Shown here: positions 1-64,000 of the stretch, in pieces
How the letters are laid out: the number at the start of each line of letters is the position of its first letter
How positions within the stretch are numbered: the first letter of the stretch is position 1
IMG/VR virus record: IMGVR_UViG_3300008262_000008
Strand: one strand, 5' to 3'
DNA: 64,000 nucleotides
Origin: a virus
Made by a program: the position numbers and the translations under genes
The notes under the pieces: model-generated
Told to the model about the DNA's origin: nothing
The model's database searches: none
What the model saw: the letters and a program-made list of their open reading frames with translations, nothing else

Positions 1-377
1 CATTTATTTACAATGTAAAAAAACACTGCTCGATCAAGAGCAGATACTGTTGGATCATTTACACCTACTTTAGCATGAGTAAAAAGTTCTCTTGCTTTAT
101 CTGGAGTATCATGAGCATACTTAGCATTAGAAAGAATGTCTCTCATATGACCACCATTTGCTTGTAACTGTTGCCAGAAATTTACAAGAGGTTCATATAA
201 ATCACTTACCCAAACATCAGCATCTGGGTTCTCTTTAGTAAATGCAATTGCTACACTACCACCACCAAGAAAAGGTTCTCGATATTCTAGAATACCTTTA
301 GGAAATTTCGGTACAAGATATTTTGTGGCACGAGACTTACCACCAGGATAACGTAAAGGTGTCTTAAGACTTTTCAT
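1..377 (-). CDS. dam: DNA adenine methyltransferase (Dam-like), 3' end outside window
   Basis: Translated by hand from ATG at 377: MKSLKTPLRYPGGKSRATKYL...EYREPFLGGGSVAIA...VSDLYEPLVNFW. It has the YPGGKS and EPFxGGGSV SAM-binding motifs of D12-class N6-adenine MTases. The start overlaps the gp44 stop (TAATG). Not in the ORF track because it is truncated. Confidence 0.9.
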   Translation of the reverse strand, partial: MKSLKTPLRYPGGKSRATKYLVPKFPKGILEYREPFLGGGSVAIAFTKENPDADVWVSDLYEPLVNFWQQLQANGGHMRDILSNAKYAHDTPDKARELFTHAKVGVNDPTVSALDRAVFFYIVNK

Positions 378-43055: not shown

Positions 43056-44588
43056 TTAAAATTCTACAACAACCTTAATGTCTTCGATCTGGTCGTTTGC
43101 CCTGGTAATTGACTTTCTATTATCTATATAGAGAACTTGTGCCGAATTTTTCTTTAATTCAGGCGATGAATATCCAGAAGTGAAACGGGATCCTAGATCA
43201 TAATCAGTATTATTAATTGTTCTCACAGAAGTGTTTTGTCCAAACTGTACATCTGGAGATGCACTAGCACCAGAAGTTAATCCCACAATTGGATTACTTC
43301 CTGTAAATAATGATAAACTACCAGAAATTTCAGGATAAATACCATCAACTTTATTTTGATAGTATCTTAATACTTTTGTTACTGGGTTCCATGAAACAAC
43401 TTTTCCTCTTGAAGTAATGGTTTGTCCACCAACTGTTCTTTGTTGCTGGATAGTTTCGTCTGGTTGGTAATTATTTTGAAAAGTTGGCGAGAAGATAACA
43501 GCGTAAGTTCCTGATAAAGTTAAATCTTCAGTTAATTCTTCAGTATTATATTTTTTTGGATTGATAATTAATCCAATTCTACGATAATCGTTATCAATTG
43601 GAAAGTCTCCAGACCCTTCAGAATATGATAATTTGGTATTTACCATAACTCTATATCCACCAAGTTCAATATCTGCCTGAGCACCATGTCCACCAACAGG
43701 AGGAATAATTACATCAATTTGTCCTCCTGTTCCAGTACCAATACCAGCAATATTTGTAGAATCTACGGTAATTCTTCCAAAGGAATAACCTGTTCCCCCA
43801 GATGTTACTGTAGCTGAGAAGATTTTACCTCCATCGATTGTAATTGAAACTCTACCTCCAGTACCGTCTCCATTAATAGGTACGTTCTCATAAGTTCCAT
43901 TATTATAACCAGCACCAGCAGAAGTAATAACTACAGTATCAATTTCTCCACCAACTGCGTTACTAGAAACCACAGTATCATTAATTACAGGCATGTAATC
44001 ATTTGAGAAAAACTTTAGAACCGATGAAACAGGAATAGTATACATATACTTCCAACGATAACCATCAGAGGTTGAAATAACTGAAGTTGACGTTCCTGTT
44101 GGTTCTACAGTTGAAGGTTTTCCATTTGGATCCGATGGAGAAGTTCCATTGAAAATGCACTTATAAACTTGATATGAAGAGTTGACTACATAAAAATCAG
44201 ATTCATACAATCTTACAGCACCTGAGGATGCTGTTTTAGTTGGAGAATAATCATGTCTATACATATCATATGTGTATCCCAATCCACCTGTAGTTTTTTC
44301 AGGAGGAACCCATTCAATTCTTCTTACAACTTGAATAACATCTGATGAAAGAACTCTTTTTAGAGAGATCATATCATCATAGATATCAGTAAATTCTGAA
44401 AAACTATCAATAGCTGCAGGAGGCGTATTTTCATTATCCCATGGTTGAGGTCTTCCAATAAAGAAATATAATCTATCTCTAGTTGAACCTGCATCTAAAT
44501 CGCTTTGAGATGCAACTGGTCCCTCTAAAGCTTTGATGAATTTCTTTGCAGAAAATATCCTAAATTGATCAGTTAATAGTGCTGACAT
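43056..44588 (-). CDS. gp8: Baseplate wedge subunit
   Basis: SALLTDQFRI, YFFIGRPQPW, YDMYRHDY, DGYRWKYMYTI, LYIDNRKSITRANDQIEDIKVVVEF. Confidence 0.92.
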   Translation of the reverse strand: MSALLTDQFRIFSAKKFIKALEGPVASQSDLDAGSTRDRLYFFIGRPQPWDNENTPPAAIDSFSEFTDIYDDMISLKRVLSSDVIQVVRRIEWVPPEKTTGGLGYTYDMYRHDYSPTKTASSGAVRLYESDFYVVNSSYQVYKCIFNGTSPSDPNGKPSTVEPTGTSTSVISTSDGYRWKYMYTIPVSSVLKFFSNDYMPVINDTVVSSNAVGGEIDTVVITSAGAGYNNGTYENVPINGDGTGGRVSITIDGGKIFSATVTSGGTGYSFGRITVDSTNIAGIGTGTGGQIDVIIPPVGGHGAQADIELGGYRVMVNTKLSYSEGSGDFPIDNDYRRIGLIINPKKYNTEELTEDLTLSGTYAVIFSPTFQNNYQPDETIQQQRTVGGQTITSRGKVVSWNPVTKVLRYYQNKVDGIYPEISGSLSLFTGSNPIVGLTSGASASPDVQFGQNTSVRTINNTDYDLGSRFTSGYSSPELKKNSAQVLYIDNRKSITRANDQIEDIKVVVEF

Positions 44589-44626: not shown

Positions 44627-47600
44627 TTATAGTGTTGGTTGTTCGATTAGTATGGTTTGATATTCAATATCTTTAATTCTGTAAGAAGCTCCAGATAAAT
44701 TACCAGTTATATTTTCTCCACCTAAAATAGCTTGTACAATAGCTCCAGTTCCTGTTGTATCTCCTGGATCAGGAACTACAATAACTTCTGGAGGATTTTC
44801 TGGATCGTATCCATAACCACCATCAACAATTGTTGTTGAAGTTAATTGATCTAAAGTTAAAGATGTTGTAGCTGAAGCTGCAAGAAGACCAGTAGTTTCA
44901 ATATCTAAAGTTGGCGCAATAGTATATTGTTGTCCAAAATCCATAACCCTAATATCTACAATGGTAGAATTTTTAGAGAATGTATATAAAGTTCCTACTA
45001 GTGGATCCCCAGTATCATATGGTTGTGGAGACTTAACACGCAAAATTTTATTTGTACTATCCCAAGAAACGACCTCTGCGGTAATACTTGATTGATCTCC
45101 AGTGATAATTTCACCTTCTATAAAATCGACATCAATTGTATTTTCTCTAGATTTTAGATATATGTCTAAAATTGCGGTATGTTCTATACCTTCATCTAAT
45201 CCACCTGCTTCCAAAATAGATGCAATAACTGGATTTGGGTGACCATCTTTAATTTTATCTTGAGTTGTAAGTAGTGTTAGATTTACACCTCCCGTTGTTT
45301 CTTCAATACCATATAGTGTTCCTGGTTTACCTCCATCTAAACTAGTATCACCATCGTATTCAGTACCAGCATTAAATAAATCAGGAATACCATCAACAAA
45401 TCCATTTACAGGAGTATCCTGAAATGCAAAATTTGATAATACTGAAATTGGATCAGTTAATAATGTAACGAATGATCCTATAGTATCTATTAAAATATGA
45501 GGTTTTTGTGCTGACGTTGTAAAATCTGATTTACCTGCATCAAATTGTACAACTGTGCTTCGTTCACTTGCTCTTCCCGCATCAATAAATGCTAGGTCAT
45601 CTACAATAAAATTAATAAACAATTCACCAGTAGATTGCTTCCAATCGTATACAATTCCCTGCTTAGCACCAGCAATATTAACAGTCCTGATAATTCTATC
45701 ACCAATATTAAAAATTAAATCTTCTGGTCTTTCGAGAACAATTCTCTGATCATATCTAAAATTATCTCCCCTAACACATCCTGATATAGAATAAGTATCT
45801 TTGGTTGTATAAGTAAAAATTTCATTTTCAATATAAAATTTTCCACTACCCGAAAAGGGATCTGTGGGATTAATATAAATTGTAGTATCAGATCTACCAA
45901 CATCTTTAAGTAGACCAGCTAAAAATCTACTGCCAGAATTTAAATATTGTCTATTTCTATTAACTCTTTTTAATCTTGCCTTTCTGGTTAAAACTATTTT
46001 TGGTGCGGTAGTATACCCTTTTCCACCAGAGGTAATATTTACATTCGTTAGTTCTCCATTAGAAACATCAATTGTTGCTTTTGCACCAACACCATTACCA
46101 CCTTCAAAAATAAGATAAGGTGGTATATCATAGTATTCTCCAGGATCTGTAATTTGAATACTAGAAACATATCCAGCATTATCTACATTAATTTTTCCTG
46201 CAGCACCAATTCCACCACCACCTTGTATTATAAGACCAACATCTCCCTCAGTATAATTTTTGCCAGGATTAATAATACTTAAAGAAGTAACACTATTAGT
46301 TGATACAGATGCAGATGCCCCATTTCCTCCAAATCCACTAATATTAACTGTTGTTGGGCCAAAATATTCATCACCTTGAGATACTAATTGAATATAAGAT
46401 ATCGCTCCATCAGAAATATTTGCTATAGCTACTGCTGGAGTAGTTGGATTGCCACCTGAAATTTCTAGTGTTGGTGGAGAAGTATAACCTCCTCCCCTAT
46501 TGATAATTTGTATCTCAACTACTTTTCCAGCTAAAACAACAGCACTTAAAACTGCTCCAACACCGCCGCCCCCGTTCGCAACAACTGTTGGTTCGGACTG
46601 ATATCCAGAACCTTGATCAGTGATAGTTATTGTAGAGATTACTTTATCAGATCGTAAAATAGGTTTAGCATTTGCACCATATCCTTGTGTTGCTGCAGCA
46701 CCTGTACCAACAGGTGTTGATAAAATTTCAACTCTTAATGGATCATAACCTGCGCCACTATTAATTACTTTTACTGCAACAATTTTATCTTTGAATATAA
46801 TTGGTTCTAACACTGCAGGAACACTTGGATTTCCAGCATTCGCAATTCTTAAAATTGGAGGATTACTTACATCATATCCAGAGCCAGCATTTACAACATC
46901 TACACTATCAATTCCATTTTCAGTATTAAATGAAGGAATTAATACTGCTCCACTTCCAGGAGTTAATACTGTGGGATCTTCACCAAGTTCAACTGGCGAT
47001 CCATAGTATGTTGGGCCTATTACATATGGATATGTAGGAGTTGTTAGTGAGTTATTAAATGTTGTAAAATATGCATATGTTCCGTTAGGAAAATCTGGAG
47101 TAACACAATATCTTCCATTATGCTGATCTAAATCACCATATCCCAAAACCCATTCATAATCCTGTACATATTGTCCAGCTTGTCTTATAATTGGTAAAAT
47201 TTGTTGATTTGGTGGAGTAGTATTAATAGGATTAATAATATAATATAAATTGTATGAACTTGTTGTTGGTGCTACTGGAGGAACTTTGAAAAATACTTTT
47301 ATAATGTATTCTCCAGGAGATAATCTTTGAACGATACTTTCATCTTTATCTCCTCCAAAAACCGAGTTTGCGATTGGGAAACCTGTTGAAGTTTGGAGCT
47401 CTAGATCAACATCAATTGCGCCTGGATTTAAATCAAGTGTGATAGAAACTACTGATGTTGAAGATACTATAAATCTATAGAATTTTTCTACTCCATCAAT
47501 ACTACTAATAATACTCTCTTGGAATTCTATTCTTTGATAAGGTAATGGCGTTACAATTGGCAGAGGATTTTTTAATCTATAACTTGTAGATAAAACTTTT

Positions 47601-48148
47601 ACACCAGAATTTATATTTGTTGGATCTGTATAACCAACAGGACCATATATGGGATACCCATCTAATGCCACACCCAAAATTTTAGAATGTCCATCTTCAT
47701 GATATAAATCATCATTATAGTAATTTCCTCTACTCAGTTCTTTGTCAACTTCACTCCAACCATTCCAACCTTTTCCTGTATTGTAATGGTATACATTATT
47801 TTCATCTGGATATCCATCATATTGATCTTTACCAGTAATAAAAGAACTATGCATTTTATCATAGTTAAATCCAGCTGGAGGTAGAGGAGCTCCTTGTTGA
47901 CCAGCATTAGGTGAATATATTGGCACACCATTCATTGCAAATCCAACAATTTTATAAGATGTTGGAACAGAAATCGAAGAAGGAATATTAACTCCCCCTC
48001 TATAAATTATTGTCTGATCAAAACTTTGTTCCTCAACAGTACTTGTGTTGTTTGCATTAGGAAATGCTCCAATCGAATGTAGTGGTAATCCATTCGATTG
48101 GATTCTCATAAAACTGTTATTATTTTCGAATGTAAAGGTGCCTGCCAT
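44627..48148 (-). CDS. Virion/baseplate-associated protein with N-terminal YHYH domain, inserted PPC-like domain and GxGY repeats
   Basis: GFAMNGVPIY, VYHY, HSKILGVALDGYPIYGP, DYEW...GDLDQHNGRYCVTPDFPNGTYAYF (YHYH family), followed by multiple GSGY/GQGY modules. Confidence 0.8.
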   Translation of the reverse strand: MAGTFTFENNNSFMRIQSNGLPLHSIGAFPNANNTSTVEEQSFDQTIIYRGGVNIPSSISVPTSYKIVGFAMNGVPIYSPNAGQQGAPLPPAGFNYDKMHSSFITGKDQYDGYPDENNVYHYNTGKGWNGWSEVDKELSRGNYYNDDLYHEDGHSKILGVALDGYPIYGPVGYTDPTNINSGVKVLSTSYRLKNPLPIVTPLPYQRIEFQESIISSIDGVEKFYRFIVSSTSVVSITLDLNPGAIDVDLELQTSTGFPIANSVFGGDKDESIVQRLSPGEYIIKVFFKVPPVAPTTSSYNLYYIINPINTTPPNQQILPIIRQAGQYVQDYEWVLGYGDLDQHNGRYCVTPDFPNGTYAYFTTFNNSLTTPTYPYVIGPTYYGSPVELGEDPTVLTPGSGAVLIPSFNTENGIDSVDVVNAGSGYDVSNPPILRIANAGNPSVPAVLEPIIFKDKIVAVKVINSGAGYDPLRVEILSTPVGTGAAATQGYGANAKPILRSDKVISTITITDQGSGYQSEPTVVANGGGGVGAVLSAVVLAGKVVEIQIINRGGGYTSPPTLEISGGNPTTPAVAIANISDGAISYIQLVSQGDEYFGPTTVNISGFGGNGASASVSTNSVTSLSIINPGKNYTEGDVGLIIQGGGGIGAAGKINVDNAGYVSSIQITDPGEYYDIPPYLIFEGGNGVGAKATIDVSNGELTNVNITSGGKGYTTAPKIVLTRKARLKRVNRNRQYLNSGSRFLAGLLKDVGRSDTTIYINPTDPFSGSGKFYIENEIFTYTTKDTYSISGCVRGDNFRYDQRIVLERPEDLIFNIGDRIIRTVNIAGAKQGIVYDWKQSTGELFINFIVDDLAFIDAGRASERSTVVQFDAGKSDFTTSAQKPHILIDTIGSFVTLLTDPISVLSNFAFQDTPVNGFVDGIPDLFNAGTEYDGDTSLDGGKPGTLYGIEETTGGVNLTLLTTQDKIKDGHPNPVIASILEAGGLDEGIEHTAILDIYLKSRENTIDVDFIEGEIITGDQSSITAEVVSWDSTNKILRVKSPQPYDTGDPLVGTLYTFSKNSTIVDIRVMDFGQQYTIAPTLDIETTGLLAASATTSLTLDQLTSTTIVDGGYGYDPENPPEVIVVPDPGDTTGTGAIVQAILGGENITGNLSGASYRIKDIEYQTILIEQPTL

Positions 48149-48181: not shown

Positions 48182-51100
48182 TTATTCTTCATCTAGACCA
48201 AAATCACCAAATACATTACCAGTGCCTAATAATAAAGTTGAATTTGGTAATTCTACTGTAGCAGCAATTACTTCAGGGTCTCTATAACCATAACCACCAT
48301 CAACAAGATTGACCGATGATACACCTACTAATGCTTTTAATTGTCCATCAAATCCACCAGTTGAAGTTACAACAACTTCTGGTCTAGATGTGTATCCAGA
48401 TCCACCAGCACTAATTTGTGTTTCTGAAATTAGTCCCTTAGAAATTACTGCCGTTAATACTGCAGATTTACCATATACAGGTCCATCATAATTGTATGTC
48501 ACGAGAGAATTTGAAGATTCAATAACAGCAACTGTTCTGTCTTCTGTCTCACCCTCAATTGATAAAATATCATCAGTTTCAACTTCAGGAACTACAACAT
48601 CTTGTACAACGTCAGCATCAGAACCAATATATGCAAATCCAATAAATTGACTTCCAGTTCTAGGAACTTCAGTGAAATTAATTCTAGAACCACTTAAATC
48701 ATAACCTTCTCCAGCTTTTTGGATGACACCATTCATGGAAACAATGATATTATTATCAGGTTTTGTTAATGCAGAAGATCCCTCTGTAACTGTTAATGAG
48801 TAGAAAGAATTATTTCGCTTAAGGTTAAAGCTAGATCTTAATGAATCAAATTCAAACGAGATATCATCTAAAATTCTAAGCTTACCTAAGTAAGTTCCAA
48901 CGAAACTGGAACCGAATTGAGGAGCTTCGTAGAATGTAATTTTATCACTAAATGTAATGTAAGAAATGCCTGGTTGTTGTAAAATTCCATTAACAAATAT
49001 TAATACATAACCTTCAGTATTTGGGAAGTATTGTATTCCATTATTATATGTTAAATCAAATGTTGTTTGAACTCCATCAAAACCACGGAAATACCTATCT
49101 ACTTTACCAAGAACCTGGGTAGTTTTACTGTTATATGAAACATAACCACCACTAGATGTAATCCTACAATAATCATTAAAATTGCCCACTACTGAAGTTA
49201 AGAATAATTGTTTTGTTGAACCAACTAAAACAACCTTATTAATTGTTGCATATGAATATTGATTATTATATACTTCTTCTAGAGATACAATGGTTGCTTT
49301 TCCAATTACATTTTGAGTTGTAGTATTTTTATTTGCAATCAATGCTCCCTTATCAAAAGTTGTATATGTTATAGTTGAAGGAACATTTGCATAATCAGTA
49401 AGAATACTGATGTATAAATCAACTAAAGTATTGATGGTGCTTCTAACAGTAGCACAAGAATTAATATTATATGCTGTTGGATAAGCATCATCATATAACA
49501 CTTCATCATTAAATACTTGATCAACTGCTGCATAATAATTTGCTAACTCATGTCTAGCATTTTGATAGGATGTTGGTACTGGAATATTATTAATTACATA
49601 AGGTAGTAATGTTTTTAGATATGTTAAACCTGCAATACTTTGCGATTCTTCACCAGCAATTCCATTAGTAATGAAAGTGCCAGTCACTGCATCATAATAA
49701 TATAATGCACTATTCACAACTTTACTATTTCCACCGTATCTTACGTTATGAGCGATTGCATCAATCCAGTATTTAATATCTCTTTCACACTTGACTTCAT
49801 TTGTTGACCAAGTACCTACTGTCTCTGTAGGAACACTAGATGTATTTCCTGCATTAAGAGCAGTTGTCATAATCGCGGTAAGAGTAGTAATTGCACTTTG
49901 AACTTGTGTGCATGAAGATGAGTTTTGGTTTGAACCTGTTGTAGGATCTGCAGAAATTGTTAAATCCTGAACAGGAGTTAATCCTGTATATGTTCCAGTT
50001 GGTAAAGTATTAGTAATCGCTGCCTTCATCAAATCTCTTGCATAATTAAATGCTGCAACAGATTGCGTTACTTCTCCCGCTAAACCATTAGTTAGAAGGG
50101 TTGTAGCGTTGCTAAAGTAGTATAAAGTATTAGTTCTAGTATTTTGATTTCCTCCATCATACAGGTCATTAGCAACCCCTTTGATGAAGTATTCTAGATC
50201 TCTCTTACACTTGTTTTCACCTGTTGTCCAAGTTCCAACATTTCTCTTTGGTAGATTAATTAGACTACCATCTGTTAAAATGCCAGTAAGAATTGCAGTT
50301 AATGATGTAATAGCACTTTGGACGTTCGAACATGAATTTGTGTTAGTATTTGAACCTGTTGAAGGATCTGCGGTAATTGTTAAATCTGTAGTTGGTAAGT
50401 TGTTTGTTATAGCAAGTTTGCATAGATCTCTAACTTGATTAAATGCATAAATTGACTGAGTTAGTTCTCCTACTAATCCATTAGATAATAATCCACCCGT
50501 TGCTTGATCAAAGTATGCAATAGTTGCATCATAGATATTTGCATTACCACCATCATAAAGATCATTAGCAATCGCATCAATTACATAACCAAGATCTCTA
50601 CGACACTTAGTTTGATCATTATTGGGGAAAACAAATGTTGGATAGGCAGCAATTAAATTATTGATGGTAGTATCAATAATATACTGTCTATTTTTCTTGA
50701 TTAGAGTTCCAGCATCTTTAAATCTATTTACCGAAGAAGATGGTAACCAATAATCTTGTGATGTTGGTGTACCAGGATACATAAAGTCTGGATACGTTGC
50801 CTTAATATAACCAGTAGTTTCCTCAATGATATAATCACTGTTTGCATAAATTAAATTACTAGCATCCTTAAATCTACTTACAGATGAAGAAGGAGAATAA
50901 TCACTTTGCGATGCTGGGGTTCCTGGGAACTCAAAGTCTGGATATTGACTCTTAATATATCCACTAACTTCTTTTGCAATAAAATCTTTATTTGAGATTA
51001 AAAGATTTGATGCATCAATATGTGTTCCATCAATACCGATTTCAGTATTTGGTGAGTTGATAGGCAATACGGTATTTTGTGTGTCAGTATGATAGAACTC

Positions 51101-54100
51101 AACTCTTCTTGATAGTTTAGTAACAGTTCCATAATTTATTGTAGGACTGTCACCAACTACAATACTTCTAACTGCAAATAGTCTACCAGCAGTAATTTCA
51201 ACTAAATTATCTAGATTTAATACATTAGTAGTTGGATTCCAACTAGTAACATATGCATTTGCAACTTCTTGAGATTGACTATCTAACAATTTGACAAAAT
51301 CATTTTCTGCAAATGTTCCACTAATACCATTTTCAAAATAAGCTTCAGCATATTCAGTTTCATTAATACCAACAATAGTGCTTTCATCTCCAGTCTTAGT
51401 TTCTGAAATTTCATCAATTAGTGAAATACTATCTCCAATATCAAAATCTGCTAATGATTGATCAACATCAACCGTCATTTTATTAATTTTTCCTGAAATA
51501 ACAGTATCACCAGCTGTTAGTGATACTGTTTGACCCTCTTCAACTACTGTAATAATAACTTCATTATCCGAAGAATTAACTGTTTGTGATTCATAAAAAT
51601 AACCTTCGATATTTTCTGTGTCTAAAGTTAATTTTCCACCTGTGTTTGATATAATTGGGGCACTATTATATAATGATTGATCGAGAGTTGCATCTGCACC
51701 AGAAGTTAATCCAGTAAAATATTCACCGTCCTCAATCTGAGAACTAATATCAATTAATTTTAATCTATTAGTAGAACCGACTAATACGGTTGCAATAGAA
51801 CCACTTACATTACCTTCAATGATATCATCAACATCAAATGCACCAGATGTAATTATAACATCCAAGAATAGTGTATTATTTACTACTTCATAACCATAAA
51901 TTTCAGCAGTTCCAGATTGTGTAGTGTTTGTAATTTCTTCATTAGTGAACTCTGCCTCAACAGGACTATTTTCCACATCAAATTCTACAGGTATGCGAGT
52001 ATAAATTTTCTTAACCTTTGCGGTTCTTTCTATTATTGAAGTAACTTCTGCAATACTACCGCTAGATTGACCATATACATAATTTCCAAGAGTTATTCCA
52101 CCAATAACAGGATTTGGTAGTATACGAGTTCCATAATTAGGAGATGGTAGGGAAACACCATAAGTTTTTGTGACATTTAATGCCAAATACTGTGGAGATG
52201 ATAATGTTGAAGTTAATATTAAAGTTTCCGCAGTAACTTTAGTTGTTGGACCAGCACTAACCGAGATATTTGGATCTGTATATGCATAGAATGTTGTCAA
52301 TGGTGAAGGAGATACAAGTGTTTCATTAATTGCTGAAATTGTATAATCTCTAGCTTTGTTGTATGCAGCATTAGTAGCAGTAACATTTTTGTATATGAAT
52401 GATGTTACTGCAGTTCCTGACGAATTTAAATATGCTGATACATAATTCACTATTCCAGAATTTCCGTTAGTTAATAAATCATAAACTAAAGCATCAACAT
52501 AATCATCGAGTGCTGCTTTCGCGTTTGTAATTTCACTTGCAGATAAATTTAAAGTTGTATAAGTATTGGTAATAAATTTATGTGTTTCAGATACTATATA
52601 CTCCTTATTATAAAGAGCAAGTTTAGAAGCATCTTGATAGTTTTGTCCTGCTGGTCTCAAGAAAGCAATCATAATATCGTATAAAGTCGCAATAGCAGAC
52701 TTAACATTCGCACATCCACCAACATCATTTGTAATTGTATAATCTCTTACTGGATAACTTATTGGTGTTACAGTTTGATATTGTGCTGTATAAATTTCAT
52801 TATTAATTACTTTTTGTGCCAACTCTTTAATTTTTTGTAAAGTTACAATCGTAGGTAGTAACTCATTTTTGACTGAAGTAATTGATACTCCATCAGCAAG
52901 ATAGAATTTTAATCCATCAATAGTATAACCTTGTCCTCCAGTCAATAGATCTAAAATTACTGCATCGATTAGCAGTTTCATATCTCTTTCACACTTAGAT
53001 TGACCAGCAGCCCCGCTGGGGAATGTTAATGCATTATATTGAACATTATTTAACGTATATTTAAATTGACTGATTGTATATGCAACTGCTTCTTTAGCAA
53101 TAAAATCTCTATTGAACCAGAGTAAATTGCAAGCATCTCTATATCTTTGTGCTGTAGGAGCAAGAACATCATTAATAACACCCCATAGATAATCAATTCT
53201 TGAAGCAATAGCATCTGCATCAGATTCAATGTTAGTACCTAAGGTACTAATAGGTCTTTCTAAAGTAAATTGAGCATCATAATCAACTAATGTATTCAGT
53301 ACAGCTTTTTTGCAAAGATCTCTAACAAAGAAGTGTGCATGTAAACTTTGTAGAAGTTGACCAACTCCAAATTGCTGTGCTTCTCCTGGTTGATAAAGAT
53401 AACGAATTTGCTCGTTAGATGAAATATATGCTTTTGCAGCAGAAATTGAATAATAATCTCCACCAGAAGATAAATCTTGTGCAACTGCAGTAATTAATAA
53501 TTGCAAATCTCTTCTGCAAGTACTTGTTCCAGATAGGTTATTGCCAACATCTCCTGGTATTTGGAAATCTTCATAATAATATTTTAATTCATTCGATGCT
53601 TCTTCTGAAATAAACAATGAATTTTTCAAGATAACATCTGCAGCTTCTCTGTATGAATTTAAAGAACTATCAAATGCATCAGTGTAAACAATATTCTGAG
53701 CATTGATTACTTGCTTTGCCAGAATTGGAACAGTGATTTTTTCAGATACTTCTGCTGTAGTGTAACTAGTTGGTAAAATGATATTTGAGTTGTTAGTACC
53801 GTTAAAATTAAACAATACTAATGTATACGAGTCTTGAACAAACTCAGAAGAAGGTACTGCAAAATTATTAGTATATCTTGCATTTGTTGAAATGCGAAGA
53901 TCATCAATGTAACCAGTAAATCCTGTAGAAACGTTTTGGTATGAGTTGCCAATAGTCAAAGGTCTATTTGCGTAAGTGCGAGTATCGGAGAATGAAGTCG
54001 CAACACCAACACCGTTTACATAAATTTGAACTTGAGTGTTATTTTTAACAACTGCAACATGTGACCAACTATTGAGTGAAGCTGTAGCGGTGGTGGTCCA

Positions 54101-57100
54101 ATCTGTAGCATTATATCTAACAGTAATTGTGCCAGTAGAATTTCTTAATATAGTTAATGCACCTGCATCAGATCCACTATTTCTAAAGTCAAGGAACGTC
54201 TGAGTTGCCGCTGTAGTTGGATAAATCCAACATTCAGTTGTCCAATTTCCAGATCCAAGATTAAATTTTTCAGTATCATTAATATATACCCAATCACTAG
54301 AACCTAAGGTTCTTAATGATGCACTACCAAATTTAAAGAATGTAGTATTTAAACGAGATGTAGATCCATTGACATTAATTTTCCAGTTAGAAATAGTTTC
54401 CCCAAGTGTAAATGAACCTGTAATTGGTCCTGTATAAATTGTTCTAACTGAAGGATCACTATTTAATAGTGTAGTCTCTGCACCAGAAGTTAATCCATAA
54501 ATTTTGGATGATCCTCCGATTACTGGGAAGTATGTTAATCCGCTAATATTTTTATATGAAAGTTTGCTACTATATAAAGTTTCTCCTTCTGTAAAATTGC
54601 CTGTTTTACCATTTACTGATAGTTTGATAGATGTGATAGTTTCATCCATTTCAAAATTGTTAGCATTTAATGCTGTATATTCAATTACATTATCTTCAAT
54701 TGATTGATATTCAATAAAGTTTGTATTTACAGAAACAGTATCATCATTAATATCTACTAACTTAGCAGAAGATTCGCTAATATCATCAACTACAACGTTT
54801 GGATTTTCTGGATCGACAATTCTATTAAATACTAATCCATTAAATGTTGTTCCAGAATTAATTTGTAATGGTGCGCCATCATTAACTGGAATTCCAGTTA
54901 CAGGATCTCTGTATGCCCCAAGGGCAGTAATTTTTACAATTTGTCCACTGCTCTTTCCATAGATATAATCACCACTAACAAGAGCAAATAATCCATTTGG
55001 ATTTTGAGGTGTTCCTGTAATTTTACTTAATACAAGGCGATCATCAATTTGTCTAAATGATATTGGTAATCCTGTAGTGTTTAAACATGGTTTATTAACA
55101 ACAATTTCAGTGAAGCTAATAACCTCAACTACTTTTGTATCTTCATCAATTCCAGGTCCAGAAACTTCAGCACCGACAACAATTAAAGGTCTTGTAGGTG
55201 GATAAGATACATTAGGTAAAGTTTCTAATCCATTTGCTAATCCATTAGTTAGGATTGCCATAGATGTAGCAATTGCTGATGCTTGTGATGCACATGATGG
55301 ATTTGTATCATCATCTGGTACTCCTAGGTTGGGGAATGGAGCACCTACAGGTTGTGAAATTGGAGCACTATCAGTATAATACTTACCACTCTGCATAACA
55401 AAATCTAAATTGCCAGATCCTGATGGAACGGATGTTGTTAATTGTACTTTTGTGCTATCTATAATTTTAAATACCTTGGTATTATTTGGAATTCCAGTTC
55501 CAGTAACTGTCATTCCTTCAATTACATTAACGGTACTTTGATCAACTAGTGTAATTGTTGAAGTACCATTTCTAATAACATTTAATTTTACTTTCCAACT
55601 ACGCATTGCAGCAATAGCAAGATTTCTTGCATAATTGAATGCATCAATAGTTTCTTCTAATTGATTGTTAATATGAACAAGAGTTGATCCTCTATAATAT
55701 GCCTCAGTAGATTCAATAATTCTATAATTTCCACCATACTCTAAATCGTCAGCAATTGCAGAAATTACATATCCAATATCTCTTGCACAAGTTTGATCAC
55801 TTACAGGAATTACTAAGTCTGGATATTTTGCTTTCACATATCCTAAAGCTTCTTGAGCAATAAAGGTAGAATTTAATCTAAGACCATTAGCAGCATCTGC
55901 ATTAACACCATTTTGTCCAGTTACAATACCTGTAGTGGTTGAAGATGGAAGTTTAATAGTAGTTGAACCAAATCCTTGCTGTGTAGTTCCATTTTGTGCA
56001 ATATAAGTGATTGGTGTTGTACCATTAATTACACAAGGATCTAAAGCAAAAATAGTTACGTTACTGTCTTCAACAAGAGCATCCTTACCATTTAGATTTA
56101 ATACAGTTTCATCCTTGGTGAAAATAGTCGATGGATTTGTAACATCTGACCAATTACCAGGATTTCTTAGTGGAAGAGAACTTAGATTTGCTTGCTGAAT
56201 ACAAGTTGTTAAAATTGTTACTAGAGTAGAAAGTGAATTTCTTACGTCTGTGCAACCAAAAGGATTGGTATTTGAAGAATTTCCTTGTTCTGGTGAAGGA
56301 TCTGCAATAATACTTAGATCTTTAACTGTTAATTGATTATTTGCAGCTTGACCTGCCCAATAAGCAACTTTTTGGAAACCGTAAATACTCTGTACTTCTT
56401 CTCCAACTAATCCATTTGCAAGAGGACTACCATCAGCAGTAAAGTAATACTTAGTATTATCCCAAATATTTGAATTACCGCCACTAGAAATATCTGCTGC
56501 TAAAGCAGTTGTAATATAACCCATGTCTCTCTTGCACTTCAATTCTCCAGGAGAATAAGGAGAATTACTAATAATTGTTCCAGGTAGTCCATTCAAGTTG
56601 CCATTTGTAAGAGCAGTAGTTAGATACAATGACAATGTAGTAATTGTACTTCTAACATTAGCACATGAAGTTGCACTAGTATTTGATCCTGTCGCAGGAT
56701 CAGCAGTGATATTAAGATCCTTAAATCCTAACTGATTAGTAACAGCTTGGATCATTAGATCTCTAGCTTGATTAAATGCATAGACTGATTGAGTTTGCTC
56801 ACCTAATACACCATTAGTAATTAATGCACCCTGAGATGTAAAGTATGCCTTAATAGCAGTGATAGTATTGATATTGTTACCATCGTATAAATCTTGAGAA
56901 ATAGCATCTACAATATAACCAATATCTCTCTTACATTTTGCTTTTGCTGCAAGCACTGATGGACTTTGTAGTTCTGGTAATGCAGTAAGTGTTCCCGCTT
57001 GTAAAGTGCTTGTCAAAATTAATACTAAAGTACTAATTGTTGATTGTACATCAGTACATGCATTTGGATTTCCAGATTGCAAATTAGATTCTAATACGTC

Positions 57101-60100
57101 CCCAACTCCTTCTACAGCTGGACCTGCAGAAATTGAAAGATCTTTATTATACAGTTGATTAGTTGCTGCTTTCTTCATCATGTCACGAGCCATATTGAAG
57201 GCAACTACAGATTGATCAACTTCTCCATTTACACCATTACTAATTAATGTAGTTCCTGCAGTATTAAAGTATGCTTTAGTTGCAGTGATTGTTGAAGCAT
57301 TTCCACCAATTCCAATGTCACTTGCAATAGCATCAACAATATAACCAATGTCTCTACGGCACTTATTTTCACCAGTATTAAATGAACTTGTTCCTTCTGA
57401 TGGCAGTGTAGCAACACTTGAAGTGGAAATTGCAGTTGTGACAATAGCAGTTAGAGTGTCAATTGCTGTTCTAACATTAGCACAAGAATTTGGACTTACA
57501 TTACTTTGAGTTAAAGGATCTTCAGTTAAAGTTAAATCTTTAGTGTATAGTTGATTAGTTACCGCCTTCTTCATCATATCACGAGCCATGTTGAAGGATA
57601 CTACAGATTGTGCAGTTTCTCCGACTAGTCCATTTGAAATAGGAGTTCCTTTGTTGAAATATTGTAAAACAAACTTTCTACTATACTTATTGTTCTCTAA
57701 GAATACATCTAGAGAAATAGCATCAATGAAATACTTAATGTCTCTTAGGCACTTAGATTTGCCAGCTACATATGATCCAGAATTTTCCGTAGGTAAACTT
57801 TCAATTCCTCCAGTTCCAAATACAGTAGTTATGACACCAATTAATGTATCAATCGCACTTTGAACGTTTGCACAAGAATCAATACTTACATTACTGTTTG
57901 TTGCACTATCCGCAGTTAAAGTTAAATCTTTTACATATAATTGATTAGTTACCGCTTTCTTCATCATATTACGAGCCTGGTTAAATGCTGAAATTGATTG
58001 TGCATATTCACCAAGTAGTCCATTTGTTAATGGTTGACCATTAACAAAATATTGCTGTGCAAATTTTCTAGTATACTTGTTTCCAAGCATGAATACATCT
58101 AGAGATACTGCATCTACCAAGTAACCAAGATCTCTACGACACTTCAATTCATTAGTCTGATATGAACCAGCATTTTCGATTGGTAGTAGATTTAAATCTC
58201 TAGCAATTAATGTTGTTGTAATTAGATTGGTTAAATTGTCGATTGATGTTCTAACATTTGCACATGATTGTGGAGATTGATTTGAACCGATTAATGGATC
58301 TGGGGTTAAACTTAAATCTTTCACATATAATTGATTAGTAATAGCTGATTTCATCATATCACGAGCCATATTGAAAGCAACTATTGCTTGATCTTCTTCA
58401 TCTTGAATACCATTTGTTATAGGTGTGGTTGTAGCTGAGAAATACTGCTCTACAAATTTTCTACTATATTTGTTTCCTTCTAAGAAAATATCTAAAGAAA
58501 CAGCATCGATAAAGTGACCAATATCTCTACGGCACTTTAATTCATTAACATTATATTGACCAGCATTTTCAGATGGTAGACTACTAATTGATCCACTACC
58601 CAACGCAGTAGTTGCGATTAAAGATAGGTTATCAATTAGTGTTCTTACATTAGCGCATGAGTTTGTATTTGTATTTGATCCTGTGTCTGGGTCTGGTGTT
58701 ATAGTTAAATCTTTAATAGTTAGTTGATTAGTTAATGCCCTCTTCATCAGAGTTCTAGCCTGATTGAATGCTTCAACAGAAGCTAACTCCTCTCCAACTA
58801 AACCATTAATAATTGGAACACCATTATTAAAGTACTGTAGAACAAATTGTCTTGTATATTTATTTCCTTCTAAGAACACATCTAGAGAAACAGCATCAAC
58901 AAAATAACCAATATCTCTCTTGCACTTCAACTCTGTTGCCGCAGCTGCAGGATATACATTTAACATGTTATTCCATGCAGTCAGTACAATTTCTGTCTTG
59001 TTTAGTTGAATTAAACGATATGCATCATTAAATCTACTATGAGTATCACTTCTGGTATCACCTGGGAAATAGAAATCTTCAAACTGGACTGCAATCTCTG
59101 CCAGAGATCTATCTGCAATTTCGTCTCTATTTTGCTGAATTAGACGATAAGCATCATTAAATCTACTTGAAGAATTAGATTGAGGATCTCCAGGAAATAC
59201 AAAATCTGGGTGCTCAATTGCTACTTGAGCAAGAGATTTATCTAAAATTTCATCTTTATTCTGTTGGATTAGACGATAAGCATCATTAAATCTACTTTGA
59301 GCATCTGTTGTTTGATCACCAGGGAATACAAAATCAGGATATTGAGTAGCAATCTCTGCAATAGATCTATCTGCAATTTCATCTCTATTCTGTTGAATTA
59401 GACGATAGGCATCATTAAATCTACTATGAGTATCTGATTGTACATCTCCTGGATAATAAAAATCTGGATATTGAACAGCAATTTCAGCAAGGGATCTATC
59501 AAGAATTTCTGCTCTATTTGCAAGAATTAAGTTCTTAGCATCTAGATATCTATTTGAAACTAGTGGTTCAATTCCAACAGTTGAACCTGGATCAGCACCA
59601 AAAGTAAATGTTGGGAATTGTGTTTGAATTCTTGCAGATGCAGTATCAATAATTTCTTGGCGATTTGCTTGGATTAAACGATAACCATCTTTAAATCTAT
59701 AAGAATTGGTAGGAGCTCCTGGATATACAAAGTCTGGATAGTTTGCAAAAATATAGGATTGTTGATCAGCAAATGCCTCCTTAACAACCTCATCTTTGTT
59801 TGCAACAATTAGTTCACTTGCATTTCTGTATCTTCCGATTGATGGATGATTAAGATTTTGAATTCTTGAAATAGTTGCGATTAATCCAGTAGATGAAGCT
59901 CTGATTTCTTCTAATTCAATAAATTCATCATAACCTGTTTGAGTGCTTGGAACATAATTACTTACTGTTAGTTTAGTAATACCATTTAAGTTTGTAATTG
60001 TGTGATCGGTTGTCTTTCCAAGTCTATTAGTTCCTAGTGTAGTAATATCAATTCCAACTCCACCTAAAGCATTTGCATAAGTATTTGCTAGTTTAATTCT

Positions 60101-63100: not shown

Positions 63101-64000
63101 TCCAGATATAGTTAAAGTTGTTTTTTCTGTACCAGCAGGACTGGTATTCAATGAAATCTGAGTTACATCTAGAGAAATTAGAGAATTTTTAAAGTAATTA
63201 GATGTTGTTTGAGTTCCAATATATTCCCAAGTTATAGTGCCATCAGCAGCAGTACCTGATACATGTGTTGGAGCAGTAGATCCTGATGTTCCAGATACTG
63301 TAGAGCGATATACTAGTCCAGTAGTAGTATTCTTAACATACTGATCTGCCGAATAAGATGTATTACCAGTCCAATTTGTTACACTGTATAATTCATTAAT
63401 TAAAATATAATAAATTCCTTCAGCAAAATCCTTAAATCTTGCAGCATCATCATTTGGAATTTTTAGAGTAAATGTTCCTGCAGTACCAACTCCAGGAGTT
63501 ACTGTTGTTGTTGCAGAAGTGGTTGTTAAACTCCAAAATACGGTTGATTGATTTGCAACTTCATATACTCTTTCTCCTGCAACAAATAGACCATTGTAAT
63601 TTTCAACAACTAGTGTCCTTGTTCCAGAGTTCCAAGAAGTAACTACAGCGGTCGATCCGCTGGTAGCACCTTTTACCTTGTTACCAACAGTAAAGTCACC
63701 AGTTCCACCTGCTTGGAAATTTAGTTGCGTTTTAAAACTATAAAGTCTATATTCTTTAATTTCATTTACATCATTAATATTATCTGAAACTAACTCTGAT
63801 AACTCAGTTATAGTTGTTTGATCACTAAAATTAGTTGCATCAGTATTATATGCTACGTACACATACTTATTTACAGTATCTACTTTTGTAATAACTGCAT
63901 TCTGAGTTTTTAATCCAGTTGCATATACCTTTTCAGAAATAGTTGCACCTGGAGTAAAGTTTGCAGATTGATTTAATGTAAATCTCTTAACATTTCTAAA
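48182..64000 (-). CDS. gp7: Giant baseplate-wedge-initiator-like (gp7-type) virion protein, >5270 aa, 5' end outside the window
   Basis: The frame stays open for 46 more codons past the GTG at 63862 to the window edge (FRNVKRFTLNQ...). It contains LQDSYYYQNFSYAIKS...THPAGFQVFGE and FDGTRTAFPL/NGIVQAPG modules, a LamG-like domain and helical C-x-R-D repeats; position upstream of gp8. Confidence 0.78.
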   Translation of the reverse strand, partial: FRNVKRFTLNQSANFTPGATISEKVYATGLKTQNAVITKVDTVNKYVYVAYNTDATNFSDQTTITELSELVSDNINDVNEIKEYRLYSFKTQLNFQAGGTGDFTVGNKVKGATSGSTAVVTSWNSGTRTLVVENYNGLFVAGERVYEVANQSTVFWSLTTTSATTTVTPGVGTAGTFTLKIPNDDAARFKDFAEGIYYILINELYSVTNWTGNTSYSADQYVKNTTTGLVYRSTVSGTSGSTAPTHVSGTAADGTITWEYIGTQTTSNYFKNSLISLDVTQISLNTSPAGTEKTTLTISGLGLVKNITVITTVDKIIRIIPSGISATNQVYVGTQTAHYLNRDNIIFIEGNGSVGSPSEYDGSFSVNDIISSRSFTFNLPADATSNPAAASGIIIYAKSPVLNFIYGHQYNFDLSHPSNLGYFLSFSRDSLNRIEYSFNNIIRIGTPGIDAAGSSPKVTFKVDNLASSITYYFDPSHLGDESPVTENAYAIVRSTPYAGKFKVYSTSGGTVTSGDYKFSIELPFEPEGPAIAENTSYVTTSTTADGPIADIEFVSPGGFYKKLPVVTDISAVRTIERIQIENQGTEYEPGVYTKIPIIGDGVGGFIELEVTLEGEPGNETGKITSASLTSAGKGYTFGSIDIEGIDGILGPQLQGGGGKINVIIPPRGSGSSLYLKGTNIGKIKKLKNNNFGFDYSHDYTLKPEINFPVNLQLLNTSILRSINVTDPGSGYTVAPAVIITGGGGVGAEAEAVIKNGRISAIEIKNPGTGYSSAPDVALKSSFTFVVNVDLNYLQFSSPHGIPNGAEISFAAVEGTTTIGTPELPLSSFGRLSTTQTYYAIAGSENSLDADQLKIALTPQGAEIGDAITLINSGNGRLIIFTESFGGTAEAIVETARFLSDEYVYQGNSLSEQTAFGYVSKNNGWQTGPRLLKLENYSGEFIEGQKVTGLVSKSSGIIDNISRARGVLNINAVTQTSGKFADDTGKPSEIIQRLQDSYYYQNFSYAIKSKVVISKWRDSIKKNTHPAGFQVFGELVLDSVQETRKNDPSIEVTRSVSVGEIADLNTVESFAIVEPRYSEFDNSVVIFRSKRLTSSEQIITSTVQEFDDISSLFDGTRTAFPLTINGTNSIVSADKLLISLNGIVQAPGKAYTIVNGLQITEPDPDNPNQTITKTVQGIVFSDPPQPATTVKYVQIEIDKVFQSEIWIENIAGVIPDLGRTIVGQTSKVRASVISSESVLPSVSFDGSSSQVVDILSNTITIGKHSFVTGTEVRYTVPVGVIPLDPIPAGNITLYVIRVDESRIKLANTYANALGGVGIDITTLGTNRLGKTTDHTITNLNGITKLTVSNYVPSTQTGYDEFIELEEIRASSTGLIATISRIQNLNHPSIGRYRNASELIVANKDEVVKEAFADQQSYIFANYPDFVYPGAPTNSYRFKDGYRLIQANRQEIIDTASARIQTQFPTFTFGADPGSTVGIEPLVSNRYLDAKNLILANRAEILDRSLAEIAVQYPDFYYPGDVQSDTHSRFNDAYRLIQQNRDEIADRSIAEIATQYPDFVFPGDQTTDAQSRFNDAYRLIQQNKDEILDKSLAQVAIEHPDFVFPGDPQSNSSSRFNDAYRLIQQNRDEIADRSLAEIAVQFEDFYFPGDTRSDTHSRFNDAYRLIQLNKTEIVLTAWNNMLNVYPAAAATELKCKRDIGYFVDAVSLDVFLEGNKYTRQFVLQYFNNGVPIINGLVGEELASVEAFNQARTLMKRALTNQLTIKDLTITPDPDTGSNTNTNSCANVRTLIDNLSLIATTALGSGSISSLPSENAGQYNVNELKCRRDIGHFIDAVSLDIFLEGNKYSRKFVEQYFSATTTPITNGIQDEEDQAIVAFNMARDMMKSAITNQLYVKDLSLTPDPLIGSNQSPQSCANVRTSIDNLTNLITTTLIARDLNLLPIENAGSYQTNELKCRRDLGYLVDAVSLDVFMLGNKYTRKFAQQYFVNGQPLTNGLLGEYAQSISAFNQARNMMKKAVTNQLYVKDLTLTADSATNSNVSIDSCANVQSAIDTLIGVITTVFGTGGIESLPTENSGSYVAGKSKCLRDIKYFIDAISLDVFLENNKYSRKFVLQYFNKGTPISNGLVGETAQSVVSFNMARDMMKKAVTNQLYTKDLTLTEDPLTQSNVSPNSCANVRTAIDTLTAIVTTAISTSSVATLPSEGTSSFNTGENKCRRDIGYIVDAIASDIGIGGNASTITATKAYFNTAGTTLISNGVNGEVDQSVVAFNMARDMMKKAATNQLYNKDLSISAGPAVEGVGDVLESNLQSGNPNACTDVQSTISTLVLILTSTLQAGTLTALPELQSPSVLAAKAKCKRDIGYIVDAISQDLYDGNNINTITAIKAYFTSQGALITNGVLGEQTQSVYAFNQARDLMIQAVTNQLGFKDLNITADPATGSNTSATSCANVRSTITTLSLYLTTALTNGNLNGLPGTIISNSPYSPGELKCKRDMGYITTALAADISSGGNSNIWDNTKYYFTADGSPLANGLVGEEVQSIYGFQKVAYWAGQAANNQLTVKDLSIIADPSPEQGNSSNTNPFGCTDVRNSLSTLVTILTTCIQQANLSSLPLRNPGNWSDVTNPSTIFTKDETVLNLNGKDALVEDSNVTIFALDPCVINGTTPITYIAQNGTTQQGFGSTTIKLPSSTTTGIVTGQNGVNADAANGLRLNSTFIAQEALGYVKAKYPDLVIPVSDQTCARDIGYVISAIADDLEYGGNYRIIESTEAYYRGSTLVHINNQLEETIDAFNYARNLAIAAMRSWKVKLNVIRNGTSTITLVDQSTVNVIEGMTVTGTGIPNNTKVFKIIDSTKVQLTTSVPSGSGNLDFVMQSGKYYTDSAPISQPVGAPFPNLGVPDDDTNPSCASQASAIATSMAILTNGLANGLETLPNVSYPPTRPLIVVGAEVSGPGIDEDTKVVEVISFTEIVVNKPCLNTTGLPISFRQIDDRLVLSKITGTPQNPNGLFALVSGDYIYGKSSGQIVKITALGAYRDPVTGIPVNDGAPLQINSGTTFNGLVFNRIVDPENPNVVVDDISESSAKLVDINDDTVSVNTNFIEYQSIEDNVIEYTALNANNFEMDETITSIKLSVNGKTGNFTEGETLYSSKLSYKNISGLTYFPVIGGSSKIYGLTSGAETTLLNSDPSVRTIYTGPITGSFTLGETISNWKINVNGSTSRLNTTFFKFGSASLRTLGSSDWVYINDTEKFNLGSGNWTTECWIYPTTAATQTFLDFRNSGSDAGALTILRNSTGTITVRYNATDWTTTATASLNSWSHVAVVKNNTQVQIYVNGVGVATSFSDTRTYANRPLTIGNSYQNVSTGFTGYIDDLRISTNARYTNNFAVPSSEFVQDSYTLVLFNFNGTNNSNIILPTSYTTAEVSEKITVPILAKQVINAQNIVYTDAFDSSLNSYREAADVILKNSLFISEEASNELKYYYEDFQIPGDVGNNLSGTSTCRRDLQLLITAVAQDLSSGGDYYSISAAKAYISSNEQIRYLYQPGEAQQFGVGQLLQSLHAHFFVRDLCKKAVLNTLVDYDAQFTLERPISTLGTNIESDADAIASRIDYLWGVINDVLAPTAQRYRDACNLLWFNRDFIAKEAVAYTISQFKYTLNNVQYNALTFPSGAAGQSKCERDMKLLIDAVILDLLTGGQGYTIDGLKFYLADGVSITSVKNELLPTIVTLQKIKELAQKVINNEIYTAQYQTVTPISYPVRDYTITNDVGGCANVKSAIATLYDIMIAFLRPAGQNYQDASKLALYNKEYIVSETHKFITNTYTTLNLSASEITNAKAALDDYVDALVYDLLTNGNSGIVNYVSAYLNSSGTAVTSFIYKNVTATNAAYNKARDYTISAINETLVSPSPLTTFYAYTDPNISVSAGPTTKVTAETLILTSTLSSPQYLALNVTKTYGVSLPSPNYGTRILPNPVIGGITLGNYVYGQSSGSIAEVTSIIERTAKVKKIYTRIPVEFDVENSPVEAEFTNEEITNTTQSGTAEIYGYEVVNNTLFLDVIITSGAFDVDDIIEGNVSGSIATVLVGSTNRLKLIDISSQIEDGEYFTGLTSGADATLDQSLYNSAPIISNTGGKLTLDTENIEGYFYESQTVNSSDNEVIITVVEEGQTVSLTAGDTVISGKINKMTVDVDQSLADFDIGDSISLIDEISETKTGDESTIVGINETEYAEAYFENGISGTFAENDFVKLLDSQSQEVANAYVTSWNPTTNVLNLDNLVEITAGRLFAVRSIVVGDSPTINYGTVTKLSRRVEFYHTDTQNTVLPINSPNTEIGIDGTHIDASNLLISNKDFIAKEVSGYIKSQYPDFEFPGTPASQSDYSPSSSVSRFKDASNLIYANSDYIIEETTGYIKATYPDFMYPGTPTSQDYWLPSSSVNRFKDAGTLIKKNRQYIIDTTINNLIAAYPTFVFPNNDQTKCRRDLGYVIDAIANDLYDGGNANIYDATIAYFDQATGGLLSNGLVGELTQSIYAFNQVRDLCKLAITNNLPTTDLTITADPSTGSNTNTNSCSNVQSAITSLTAILTGILTDGSLINLPKRNVGTWTTGENKCKRDLEYFIKGVANDLYDGGNQNTRTNTLYYFSNATTLLTNGLAGEVTQSVAAFNYARDLMKAAITNTLPTGTYTGLTPVQDLTISADPTTGSNQNSSSCTQVQSAITTLTAIMTTALNAGNTSSVPTETVGTWSTNEVKCERDIKYWIDAIAHNVRYGGNSKVVNSALYYYDAVTGTFITNGIAGEESQSIAGLTYLKTLLPYVINNIPVPTSYQNARHELANYYAAVDQVFNDEVLYDDAYPTAYNINSCATVRSTINTLVDLYISILTDYANVPSTITYTTFDKGALIANKNTTTQNVIGKATIVSLEEVYNNQYSYATINKVVLVGSTKQLFLTSVVGNFNDYCRITSSGGYVSYNSKTTQVLGKVDRYFRGFDGVQTTFDLTYNNGIQYFPNTEGYVLIFVNGILQQPGISYITFSDKITFYEAPQFGSSFVGTYLGKLRILDDISFEFDSLRSSFNLKRNNSFYSLTVTEGSSALTKPDNNIIVSMNGVIQKAGEGYDLSGSRINFTEVPRTGSQFIGFAYIGSDADVVQDVVVPEVETDDILSIEGETEDRTVAVIESSNSLVTYNYDGPVYGKSAVLTAVISKGLISETQISAGGSGYTSRPEVVVTSTGGFDGQLKALVGVSSVNLVDGGYGYRDPEVIAATVELPNSTLLLGTGNVFGDFGLDEE
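49400..51022 (-). repeat. Second cluster: 3 A-type units followed by 3 B-type units
   Basis: HIDASNLL/RFKDASNLI/RFKDAGTLI, then TKCRRD (50605), NKCKRD (50209) and VKCERD (49789). Confidence 0.9.
53800..54340 (-). other. LamG/concanavalin-like lectin domain within the giant protein
   Basis: WTTECWIYP, WSHVAVVK...QIYVNG, FTGYIDDLRIS...RY motifs of Laminin_G_3-type domains. Confidence 0.8.
56150..58930 (-). repeat. Tandem array of 7 B-type units (130-142 aa)
   Basis: KCxRD(I/L/M)xYxxxAxxxD...GN...NG...(S/A/G)C(A/T)(N/D)V; first-Cys codons at 58924, 58534, 58141, 57751, 57361, 56935 and 56536. Confidence 0.92.
58925..59833 (-). repeat. Tandem array of 7 A-type units (43-49 aa; 129-nt period for A3-A7)
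   Basis: R(F/Y)xDAxxLIxxNxxEIxxxxxxxIxxxxPDFxxPG; unit starts at about 59833, 59698, 59551, 59422, 59293, 59164 and 59035. Confidence 0.92.

Follow-up and report, generated by a model that had tools for sequence, protein, structure and literature searches.

Recursive insertion of a domain into other copies of its own family has been described in Si3 of the cyanobacterial RNA polymerase beta' subunit, where sandwich-barrel hybrid motif domains are inserted into one another with bifurcating nodes, and a 6-level nest of 8 domains is known in RpoC2 of Prochlorococcus (PMC13114784). Here we analyze an arrangement of this kind in a giant virion structural protein encoded in a 64,000-nucleotide (nt) stretch of viral DNA (IMG/VR record IMGVR_UViG_3300008262_000008, whose full length is referred to as the window), in which arrays of a short sequence unit, A, are followed by arrays of a longer unit, B, in the same number. 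As in Si3, copies of one domain family appear to be inserted recursively, with nodes that bifurcate. Unlike Si3, which consists of beta-barrel hybrid motifs and belongs to a polymerase, the phage nest is predicted to be all-helical and globin-like and is part of a virion protein; its depth reaches 7 and varies between close relatives (2, 3, 4, 7), and its split halves lie in two tandem arrays that can be recognised in the DNA and have to keep the same number of copies. Recursive insertion within one family is already known from Si3, and what differs here is the fold, the class of protein, the depth and the layout of the arrays.

The closest known counterparts of the domain itself are the beta subunits of phycobiliproteins (CpcB, CpeB and the cryptophyte beta chain): the models superpose on them over helices A, B, E, F', F, G and H, and the motif C-x-R-D falls at the bilin site, where Cys82/84 is followed by Arg86 and Asp87. 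Unlike phycobiliproteins, the phage domain at the tip of the nest has no B-E loop, and elsewhere whole domains replace that loop; the phage domains are also covalently joined and nested in a virion protein, and assembly into alpha/beta rings is not expected. It has been reported that ApcE's alpha-APC domain, in the core-membrane linker, tolerates an insertion of 50-70 residues, the PB-loop, and still binds bilin (PMC11789067). This loop differs from the phage nest in being a plain loop, with no folded copy of the same domain in it and no recursion. It lies between helices B and E, which we take to be the same site that receives the insertions in the phage protein (the a-b loop, see below). With the tandem-repeat fibres of phages, made of immunoglobulin-like or collagen-like beads, the nest shares a variable copy number and a place in the host-recognition apparatus; unlike in those fibres, its order is not ABAB, the halves being segregated and paired at long range. 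No earlier description of the phycobilisome protein family PF00502 in a phage, or of a phycobiliprotein in a cyanophage tail fibre, was found in the literature.

Matched A and B units in the window and in related phages

Hidden Markov models (HMMs) were made separately for the A unit (43 residues) and the B unit (about 130 residues) and run on the giant open reading frame (ORF). They located 14 A and 14 B units in the visible protein, arranged as 7+7, 3+3 and four times 1+1, with none stray. Cluster 1 spans amino acids (aa) 1390-2613, with seven A units (aa 1390-1689) followed by seven B units (aa 1691-2613), and cluster 2 spans aa 4326-4869, with three A and then three B units (coordinates in Table 1). 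These independent models reproduced exactly the order that had been proposed from the sequence in an earlier reading, hereafter the original prediction, including its simple A1B1 copies near positions 55789, 53518 and 52993, which are the starts of the respective B units, and its Cys-less copy, found at about 52500. The two array periods it had given, 129 nt and about 390 nt, were also recovered: Tandem Repeats Finder reported a 129-nt array at 59005-59518 (4 copies, 76% matches), the A-array being the only one detected, and the spacing of B1-B4 is 130-131 aa, that is, 390-393 nt. The motifs quoted for A4-A7 and B1-B4 are present in the units, and B1-B4 are indeed closest to one another (57-65% identity, versus 36-56% to B5-B7). 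The corresponding statement for A4-A7 holds for A4-A6, which are 70-85% identical, but not for A7, which is only 39-45% identical to them and has its first 12 residues in common with them.

Equal numbers of both units were also expected in homologous proteins, and this was examined in a set of 88 (7 phage records, 80 IMG/VR loci and the window). Iterated HMMs were used for three pieces, a (unit A), b (the first ~70 residues of unit B) and c (its last ~30), and the order of pieces was read in every giant ORF. The number of a equals that of b in 62 of the 62 complete homologous ORFs, which display 24 distinct architectures, among them a2b2, a3b3, a4b4, 'abaabcbcc', 'aabcbaabcbcc' and 'aabcaaabcbcabcbcbc'. 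All 24 are valid words of the grammar D -> a D* b D* c, with zero violations. When the letters of any one of them were shuffled, just 0.02-3.5% of trials produced a nested word that is valid; with every real architecture being valid, chance can be excluded as the origin of the nested order. The value of n differs among phages, being 2, 3 or 4 in relatives, and the 7 of the window is the deepest seen; likewise, the depth of the parse is 7 in the window and at most 6 in relatives. Taken with the assignment of A plus B to one fold (see below), the parse describes host domains interrupted by complete copies of the same family over several levels, the inserted domains being hosts too. Unequal counts of a and b appeared only in ORFs cut by the end of a contig, and inspection traced them to missed detections: in locus L060 one b is split into two HMM matches, and L038 has a divergent a unit that can be recognised by eye.

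The architectures 'abaabcbcc' and 'aabcbaabcbcc' reveal a second insertion site, missed in the original prediction, between b and c (the G-H loop), located between the third and the last helix of B. The same site is occupied in the window in the single unit s1, in which the A model matches at aa 2702-2730 and the B model in two parts (HMM positions 2-70 at aa 2737-2805 and 90-121 at aa 2900-2930); the insert between them (55304-55585, minus strand) takes the place that holds whole nested domains in relatives. In addition, 'aabcaaabcbcabcbcbc', the architecture of the giant ORF of locus L033 (1671 aa), contains one host domain with two separate inserts in its a-b loop. With a second insertion site and with branching, the architecture is a tree, beyond a hairpin alone. 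A third permitted site, inside b, is suggested by aa 2098-2375 of the L060 giant ORF, where piece b is split (HMM positions 1-40 and 36-68) by an insertion of about 210 residues.

Repeats are prone to misassembly, and collapse or expansion of repeats during assembly, or faulty annotation, might be thought to have generated the matched arrays. We give this a negligible probability: the reading frame is uninterrupted over 15.8 kb, the same design recurs in genomes of isolates as well as in numerous independent metagenomes, and the units could not be collapsed in assembly because the identity among them is only 57-85%.

A predicted phycobiliprotein-like fold and the register of the pairing

PF00502 matched cluster 1 with an E-value of 3e-13 and 50.4 bits (cut-off, 22.2), a score that is the sum of weak stretches, none of them above the cut-off by itself; a single unit gave an E-value of 0.087. 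Matches to phycocyanin were sub-threshold only, the NCBIfam phycocyanin alpha model reaching 24.9 bits against a cut-off of 269. When a profile of five contiguous A+B units was compared with the PDB, phycobiliproteins made up 60 of the 60 matches listed (best E-value, 1.9e-4), and the K-C-x-R-D motif of the profile aligned on the Cys84 bilin site, which reads KCARD in the chain. Alignment of AlphaFold models with beta-phycobiliproteins by VIA-align, covering the contiguous tip domain only and not the outer A-B pairs, resulted in Z scores of 16.9-17.5 and root mean square deviations of 1.9-2.4 Å over 134-143 residues, the best being Z 17.5 at 1.9 Å over 134 residues. A7+B1 (residues 130-279 of the model) matches phycobiliprotein chain residues 32-172/177. 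The Foldseek probability for the phycobiliprotein match was 1.00, and sequence identity to phycobiliproteins is 13-18%; a search of the ESM Atlas returned no usable match.

According to these models, the unit is one all-helical phycobiliprotein-like (globin-type) domain of about 165 residues in three pieces. Piece a is predicted to form two short helices corresponding to helices A and B of phycobiliproteins and to be an integral part of the fold; piece b would provide helices E, F', F and G, with helix H coming from piece c. The N-terminal X-Y hairpin, involved in alpha/beta pairing, is absent, since the domain begins at chain residue ~32 in the structural alignments; in longer alignments (model ranges 103..279 and 70..257) the second helix of the A unit before it fills the position of X-Y. 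If A supplies helices A and B, a B unit alone would be without two core helices, and for this reason the numbers of A and B units would have to match.

The pairing of the units was modelled in two ways. AlphaFold2 was run on A4-A7+B1-B4 (686 aa, with a 14-row alignment of 4+4 clusters), and the result had a mean predicted local distance difference test score (pLDDT) of 87.2 and a predicted template modelling score (pTM) of 0.87, with pLDDT values of 83-96 in the helices of its A units (2-31, 44-74, 88-117 and 131-160); in this model the 4+4 segment is one rigid body. The 3+3 cluster gave lower values (pLDDT 74, pTM 0.65). Cluster 2 was also cut into two chains, the A-array and the B-array, and complex prediction scored 0.78, versus 0.00 for the best of 3 controls; 58 of 80 solved complexes attain this mark, as do 2 of 110 mismatched pairs, rates that hold only roughly because our own alignments were used. 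At least 75% of contacts were common to the A-array/B-array runs, with a partner pLDDT of at least 66. The predicted contacts of lowest error were those of B2 (139-214) with A2 (62-74) and of B1 (10-70) with A3 (118-123), and the A-array touched one and the same surface on all three B units. Replacing the A-array lowered the pLDDT of the B-array from 75-77 to 57-59.

These results bear on whether the two arrays could be independent, an A stalk and self-sufficient B beads whose equal numbers arose by chance or shared history. The arrays are separate in the DNA, a tandem repeat is detected in the A-array alone, and DNA identity is 77-81% for A4-A6 versus 67-72% for their presumed partners B1-B4, which suggests separate histories of duplication or homogenisation. 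However, counts match in all 24 architectures, nested or branched and with n of 2, 3, 4 or 7, the A unit corresponds to core helices of the fold, and an A-B interface is predicted whose loss is accompanied by a fall in the confidence of the B-array, so that we find independence of the arrays very improbable.

Co-variation between units points to the same mirror register as the contacts. A mirror-tree test covered 18 four-fold and 21 three-fold clusters. The mirror assignment had the highest residual distance correlations, being the best of 24 permutations in the former and of 6 in the latter (A1-B4, r = 0.70), as anticipated in the original prediction for separate trees of A and B. A Mantel test inside the 7+7 cluster of the window yielded r = 0.59 for the mirror assignment and 0.14 for the parallel one. 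When insertions and deletions were mapped between clusters of n and n-1 units, mirror partners (A2/B3, A3/B2, A3/B1) were favoured and parallel ones never. Finally, the helix boundaries of the 4+4 model place linkers of 12-15 residues between stacked domains on both strands, and A7 joins B1 without a linker, the two forming one contiguous domain.

Taken together, it is highly probable that complete domains are placed recursively inside the a-b loop of another copy, with A(i) pairing with B(n+1-i). This is the nesting of the original prediction, in which every domain occupies the A-B loop of the one outside it (A7-B1, A6-B2, etc.); equal counts, fold, the model of the whole body, contacts in mirror register and co-variation all speak for it. 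An n-fold nest would thus read a^n (bc)^n, and the chain would run out through the a pieces, turn at the contiguous tip domain A7-B1 and come back through the bc pieces, forming a two-stranded hairpin rod in which each A(i) completes the fold of its B(n+1-i). Since bc without a would miss two core helices, selection would hold the two arrays equal in number in spite of their being separate tandem DNA arrays. In relatives the b-c (G-H) loop would also host whole domains or nests, giving rise to branched, tree-like architectures. The chain would cross each junction of stacked domains twice, through the linkers described above, and because two linkers cross every junction the nest should be stiffer than repeats joined by a single one. 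Its likely role would be that of a stiff strut projecting from the baseplate/fibre apparatus, with a length set by n and both chain ends at the base. Such a strut might act as the tunable length ruler of the original prediction, of which the sequences show the variation in n among phages (2, 3, 4, 7).

The counts of A and B would likewise have to match in a domain-swapped oligomer, where the B units of each chain would be completed by the A-array of its neighbour; most tail fibres are oligomeric, and the arrays are predicted to associate as separate chains. Against such intermolecular complementation, the direct passage of A7 into B1 makes one contiguous domain, modelling of the monomer already yields one confidently predicted body, the mirror register is what an intramolecular hairpin predicts, and linkers of the observed length on both strands suit a step of one domain. 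We therefore consider it improbable, and recursive nesting within a single chain is the reading followed here.

Several points weigh against this nested reading. Whereas the counts, the nesting grammar and the sequence homology are established, the fold, the contacts and the rigidity of the nest are predictions from models, and its hairpin shape and strut role are inferred. The A1-B3 contact is absent from the best pairs listed and would follow by exclusion, and the result of the complex prediction indicates likeness in packing rather than binding, because solved phycobiliprotein folds may be remembered by the predictor. The Mantel test within the window is only moderate, the mirror assignment ranking 219 of 5040, and the margins in the mapping of insertions and deletions are small, with a few best picks that are not mirror pairs, so that this mapping is not decisive. 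The 62 complete ORFs are not independent, because the homologs fall into about 5-6 lineages, and any units in the ~2500 N-terminal residues expected beyond the window (see below) lie outside the count.

Repeat history and the conserved cysteines

The original prediction had the stalk growing from its tip, and this was not borne out. Of 103 innermost A units, 49 carry the motif [AST]W, which none of 177 outer ones has. The linker YPDF..PGD is found in 103 of the 177 outer units and is missing from the innermost, which is spaced 36 aa from the unit that follows, compared to 43 in the others. Copy-number differences between related phages are mostly located in sub-terminal shells (A2/B3, A3/B2) and only sometimes in the innermost pair. 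Thus, with an innermost A unit of a distinct, conserved type and copy differences that are mostly sub-terminal, the rod is not simply tip-grown. Gain or loss of split shell units apparently involves one A together with its mirror B. We infer that going from a^n(bc)^n to a^(n+1)(bc)^(n+1) takes two events, one per array, and that no single tandem duplication suffices; no unbalanced intermediate was found among the homologs examined. The higher DNA identity within A4-A6 than within B1-B4 hints at separate histories or unequal ages, or at homogenisation or gene conversion of the short A-array.

Among 280 distinct domains, both conserved cysteines are present in 276 and only one in 4; the motif is C-x-R-D in 241 and C-x-[D/E/S]-D in 37, with the Asp kept in 279. 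The second conserved Cys precedes the end of the aligned helix H by 19 residues and, if this helix aligns without gaps, would correspond to beta-153, 158 or 165 in chains of 172, 177 or 184 residues, respectively. That site is presumably the one known as Cys 153 in phycocyanin beta, 158 in R-phycoerythrin beta and 165 in C-phycoerythrin beta, the last two of which we take to be sites of T-type lyases. Cys-153 has been reported as the site served by these enzymes (PMC10452541). In 14 loci belonging to the S-RSM4-like and S-CAM1-like lineages, a cpeT-like gene, for a T-type bilin lyase, is situated upstream of the giant gene at a distance of 15 nt to 2.5 kb (Table 1); no such gene was found near the giant gene in S-PM2-type loci or within the 64-kb window. 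Little weight is given to this adjacency, because the 14 loci in two lineages probably derive from one ancestral arrangement.

Adsorption of S-PM2 and P-HM2 is light-dependent, independently of host photosynthesis. The conservation of cysteines of the beta-type bilin sites suggests that the fibre could be pigmented and possibly light-sensing. A more specific proposal would be that the rods bind bilins covalently, up to two per domain, as substrates of CpeT, and that the resulting stack of chromophores is the photoreceptor for the otherwise unexplained light-dependent adsorption of cyanomyoviruses; we regard it as rather unlikely. The two conserved cysteines could also form a disulfide, or their role could be purely structural. 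The 4 domains with one Cys argue weakly against an obligatory pair, their number being too small to decide.

Genomic context and significance

The giant protein belongs to phrog_701 ('virion structural protein'), and residue 3 of its visible part aligns with position 2580 of the 6136 in the profile. From this alignment, and with the ORF open at position 64000, about 2500 N-terminal residues are expected upstream of the window, and there may be more units there. Searches with tblastn identified homologs in 232 records of T4-like cyanophages, every one below 60% identity, annotated as 'tail fiber', 'short tail fiber' or 'virion structural protein', and in IMG/VR at least 549 matches were obtained. 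In RefSeq, homologs are named as short tail fibres of the T4 gp12 type; the Pfam matches in the visible part, which are limited to Laminin_G_3, weak baseplate-wedge matches and PF00502, include no gp12 domain. The downstream neighbours, coding for a YHYH-domain protein that matches phrog_708 and for a gp8 homolog, place the giant gene in a baseplate module. The Laminin_G_3 domain found between the nested clusters is a possible carbohydrate-binding module of the fibre.

Table 1. Location of the giant gene, its A and B units and nearby genes (positions in the window, or in the locus indicated)
Feature	Position	Strand	Remarks
Giant virion structural protein gene	48182..>64000	minus	ORF open at 5' end (window edge); 5272 aa visible
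Cluster 1 A-array, 7 units	58934..59833	minus	HMM, independent E-values 7e-18 to 8e-24; 129-nt tandem array
A1	59720-59833	minus	HMM
A2	59600-59698	minus	HMM
A3	59450-59551	minus	HMM
A4	59321-59422	minus	HMM
A5	59192-59293	minus	HMM
A6	59063-59164	minus	HMM
A7	58934-59035	minus	HMM
Cluster 1 B-array, 7 units	56162..58930	minus	HMM, independent E-values 1e-52 to 2e-59
B1	58565-58930	minus	HMM
B2	58172-58540	minus	HMM
B3	57782-58147	minus	HMM
B4	57395-57754	minus	HMM
B5	56972-57367	minus	HMM
B6	56579-56941	minus	HMM
B7	56162-56542	minus	HMM
Single unit s1	55211..55897	minus	HMM; A, piece b, ~95-aa beta-rich insert, piece c
Concanavalin A-like/Laminin_G_3 domain	53876-54304	minus	E-value 5e-22; between nested clusters
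Single contiguous unit s2	53162..53653	minus	HMM; first Cys present, second absent
Single contiguous unit s3	52655..53146	minus	HMM
Single contiguous unit s4	52193..52639	minus	HMM; Cys-less
Cluster 2 A-array, 3 units	50624..51025	minus	HMM
Cluster 2 B-array, 3 units	49394..50611	minus	HMM
YHYH-domain protein gene	44630-48148	minus	Matches baseplate-wedge phrog_708; downstream neighbour of giant gene
gp8 baseplate-wedge homolog gene	43059-44588	minus	Downstream of giant gene
cpeT-like gene	L023:5646-6113		Giant ORF from 6128
cpeT-like gene	L002:16450-16974		
cpeT-like gene	L003:18424-18948		
cpeT-like gene	L004:16249-16770		
cpeT-like gene	L007:17403-17924		

This work presents a natural protein whose domain order obeys a nesting rule, equivalent to the matching of brackets, and in which two separate tandem DNA arrays would be forced to the same number of copies, as the product of each completes the fold of the other. 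Besides offering a clean system for the coupling of repeat expansion to folding, and for adjustable stiff rods made from one chain, the crossing of each junction twice by the chain may serve as a design principle for engineered struts. The presence of a phycobiliprotein-like domain with both bilin-site cysteines in a host-recognition protein of phages such as S-PM2 leads to a further, long-standing question, that of light-dependent adsorption, which can now be tested directly.

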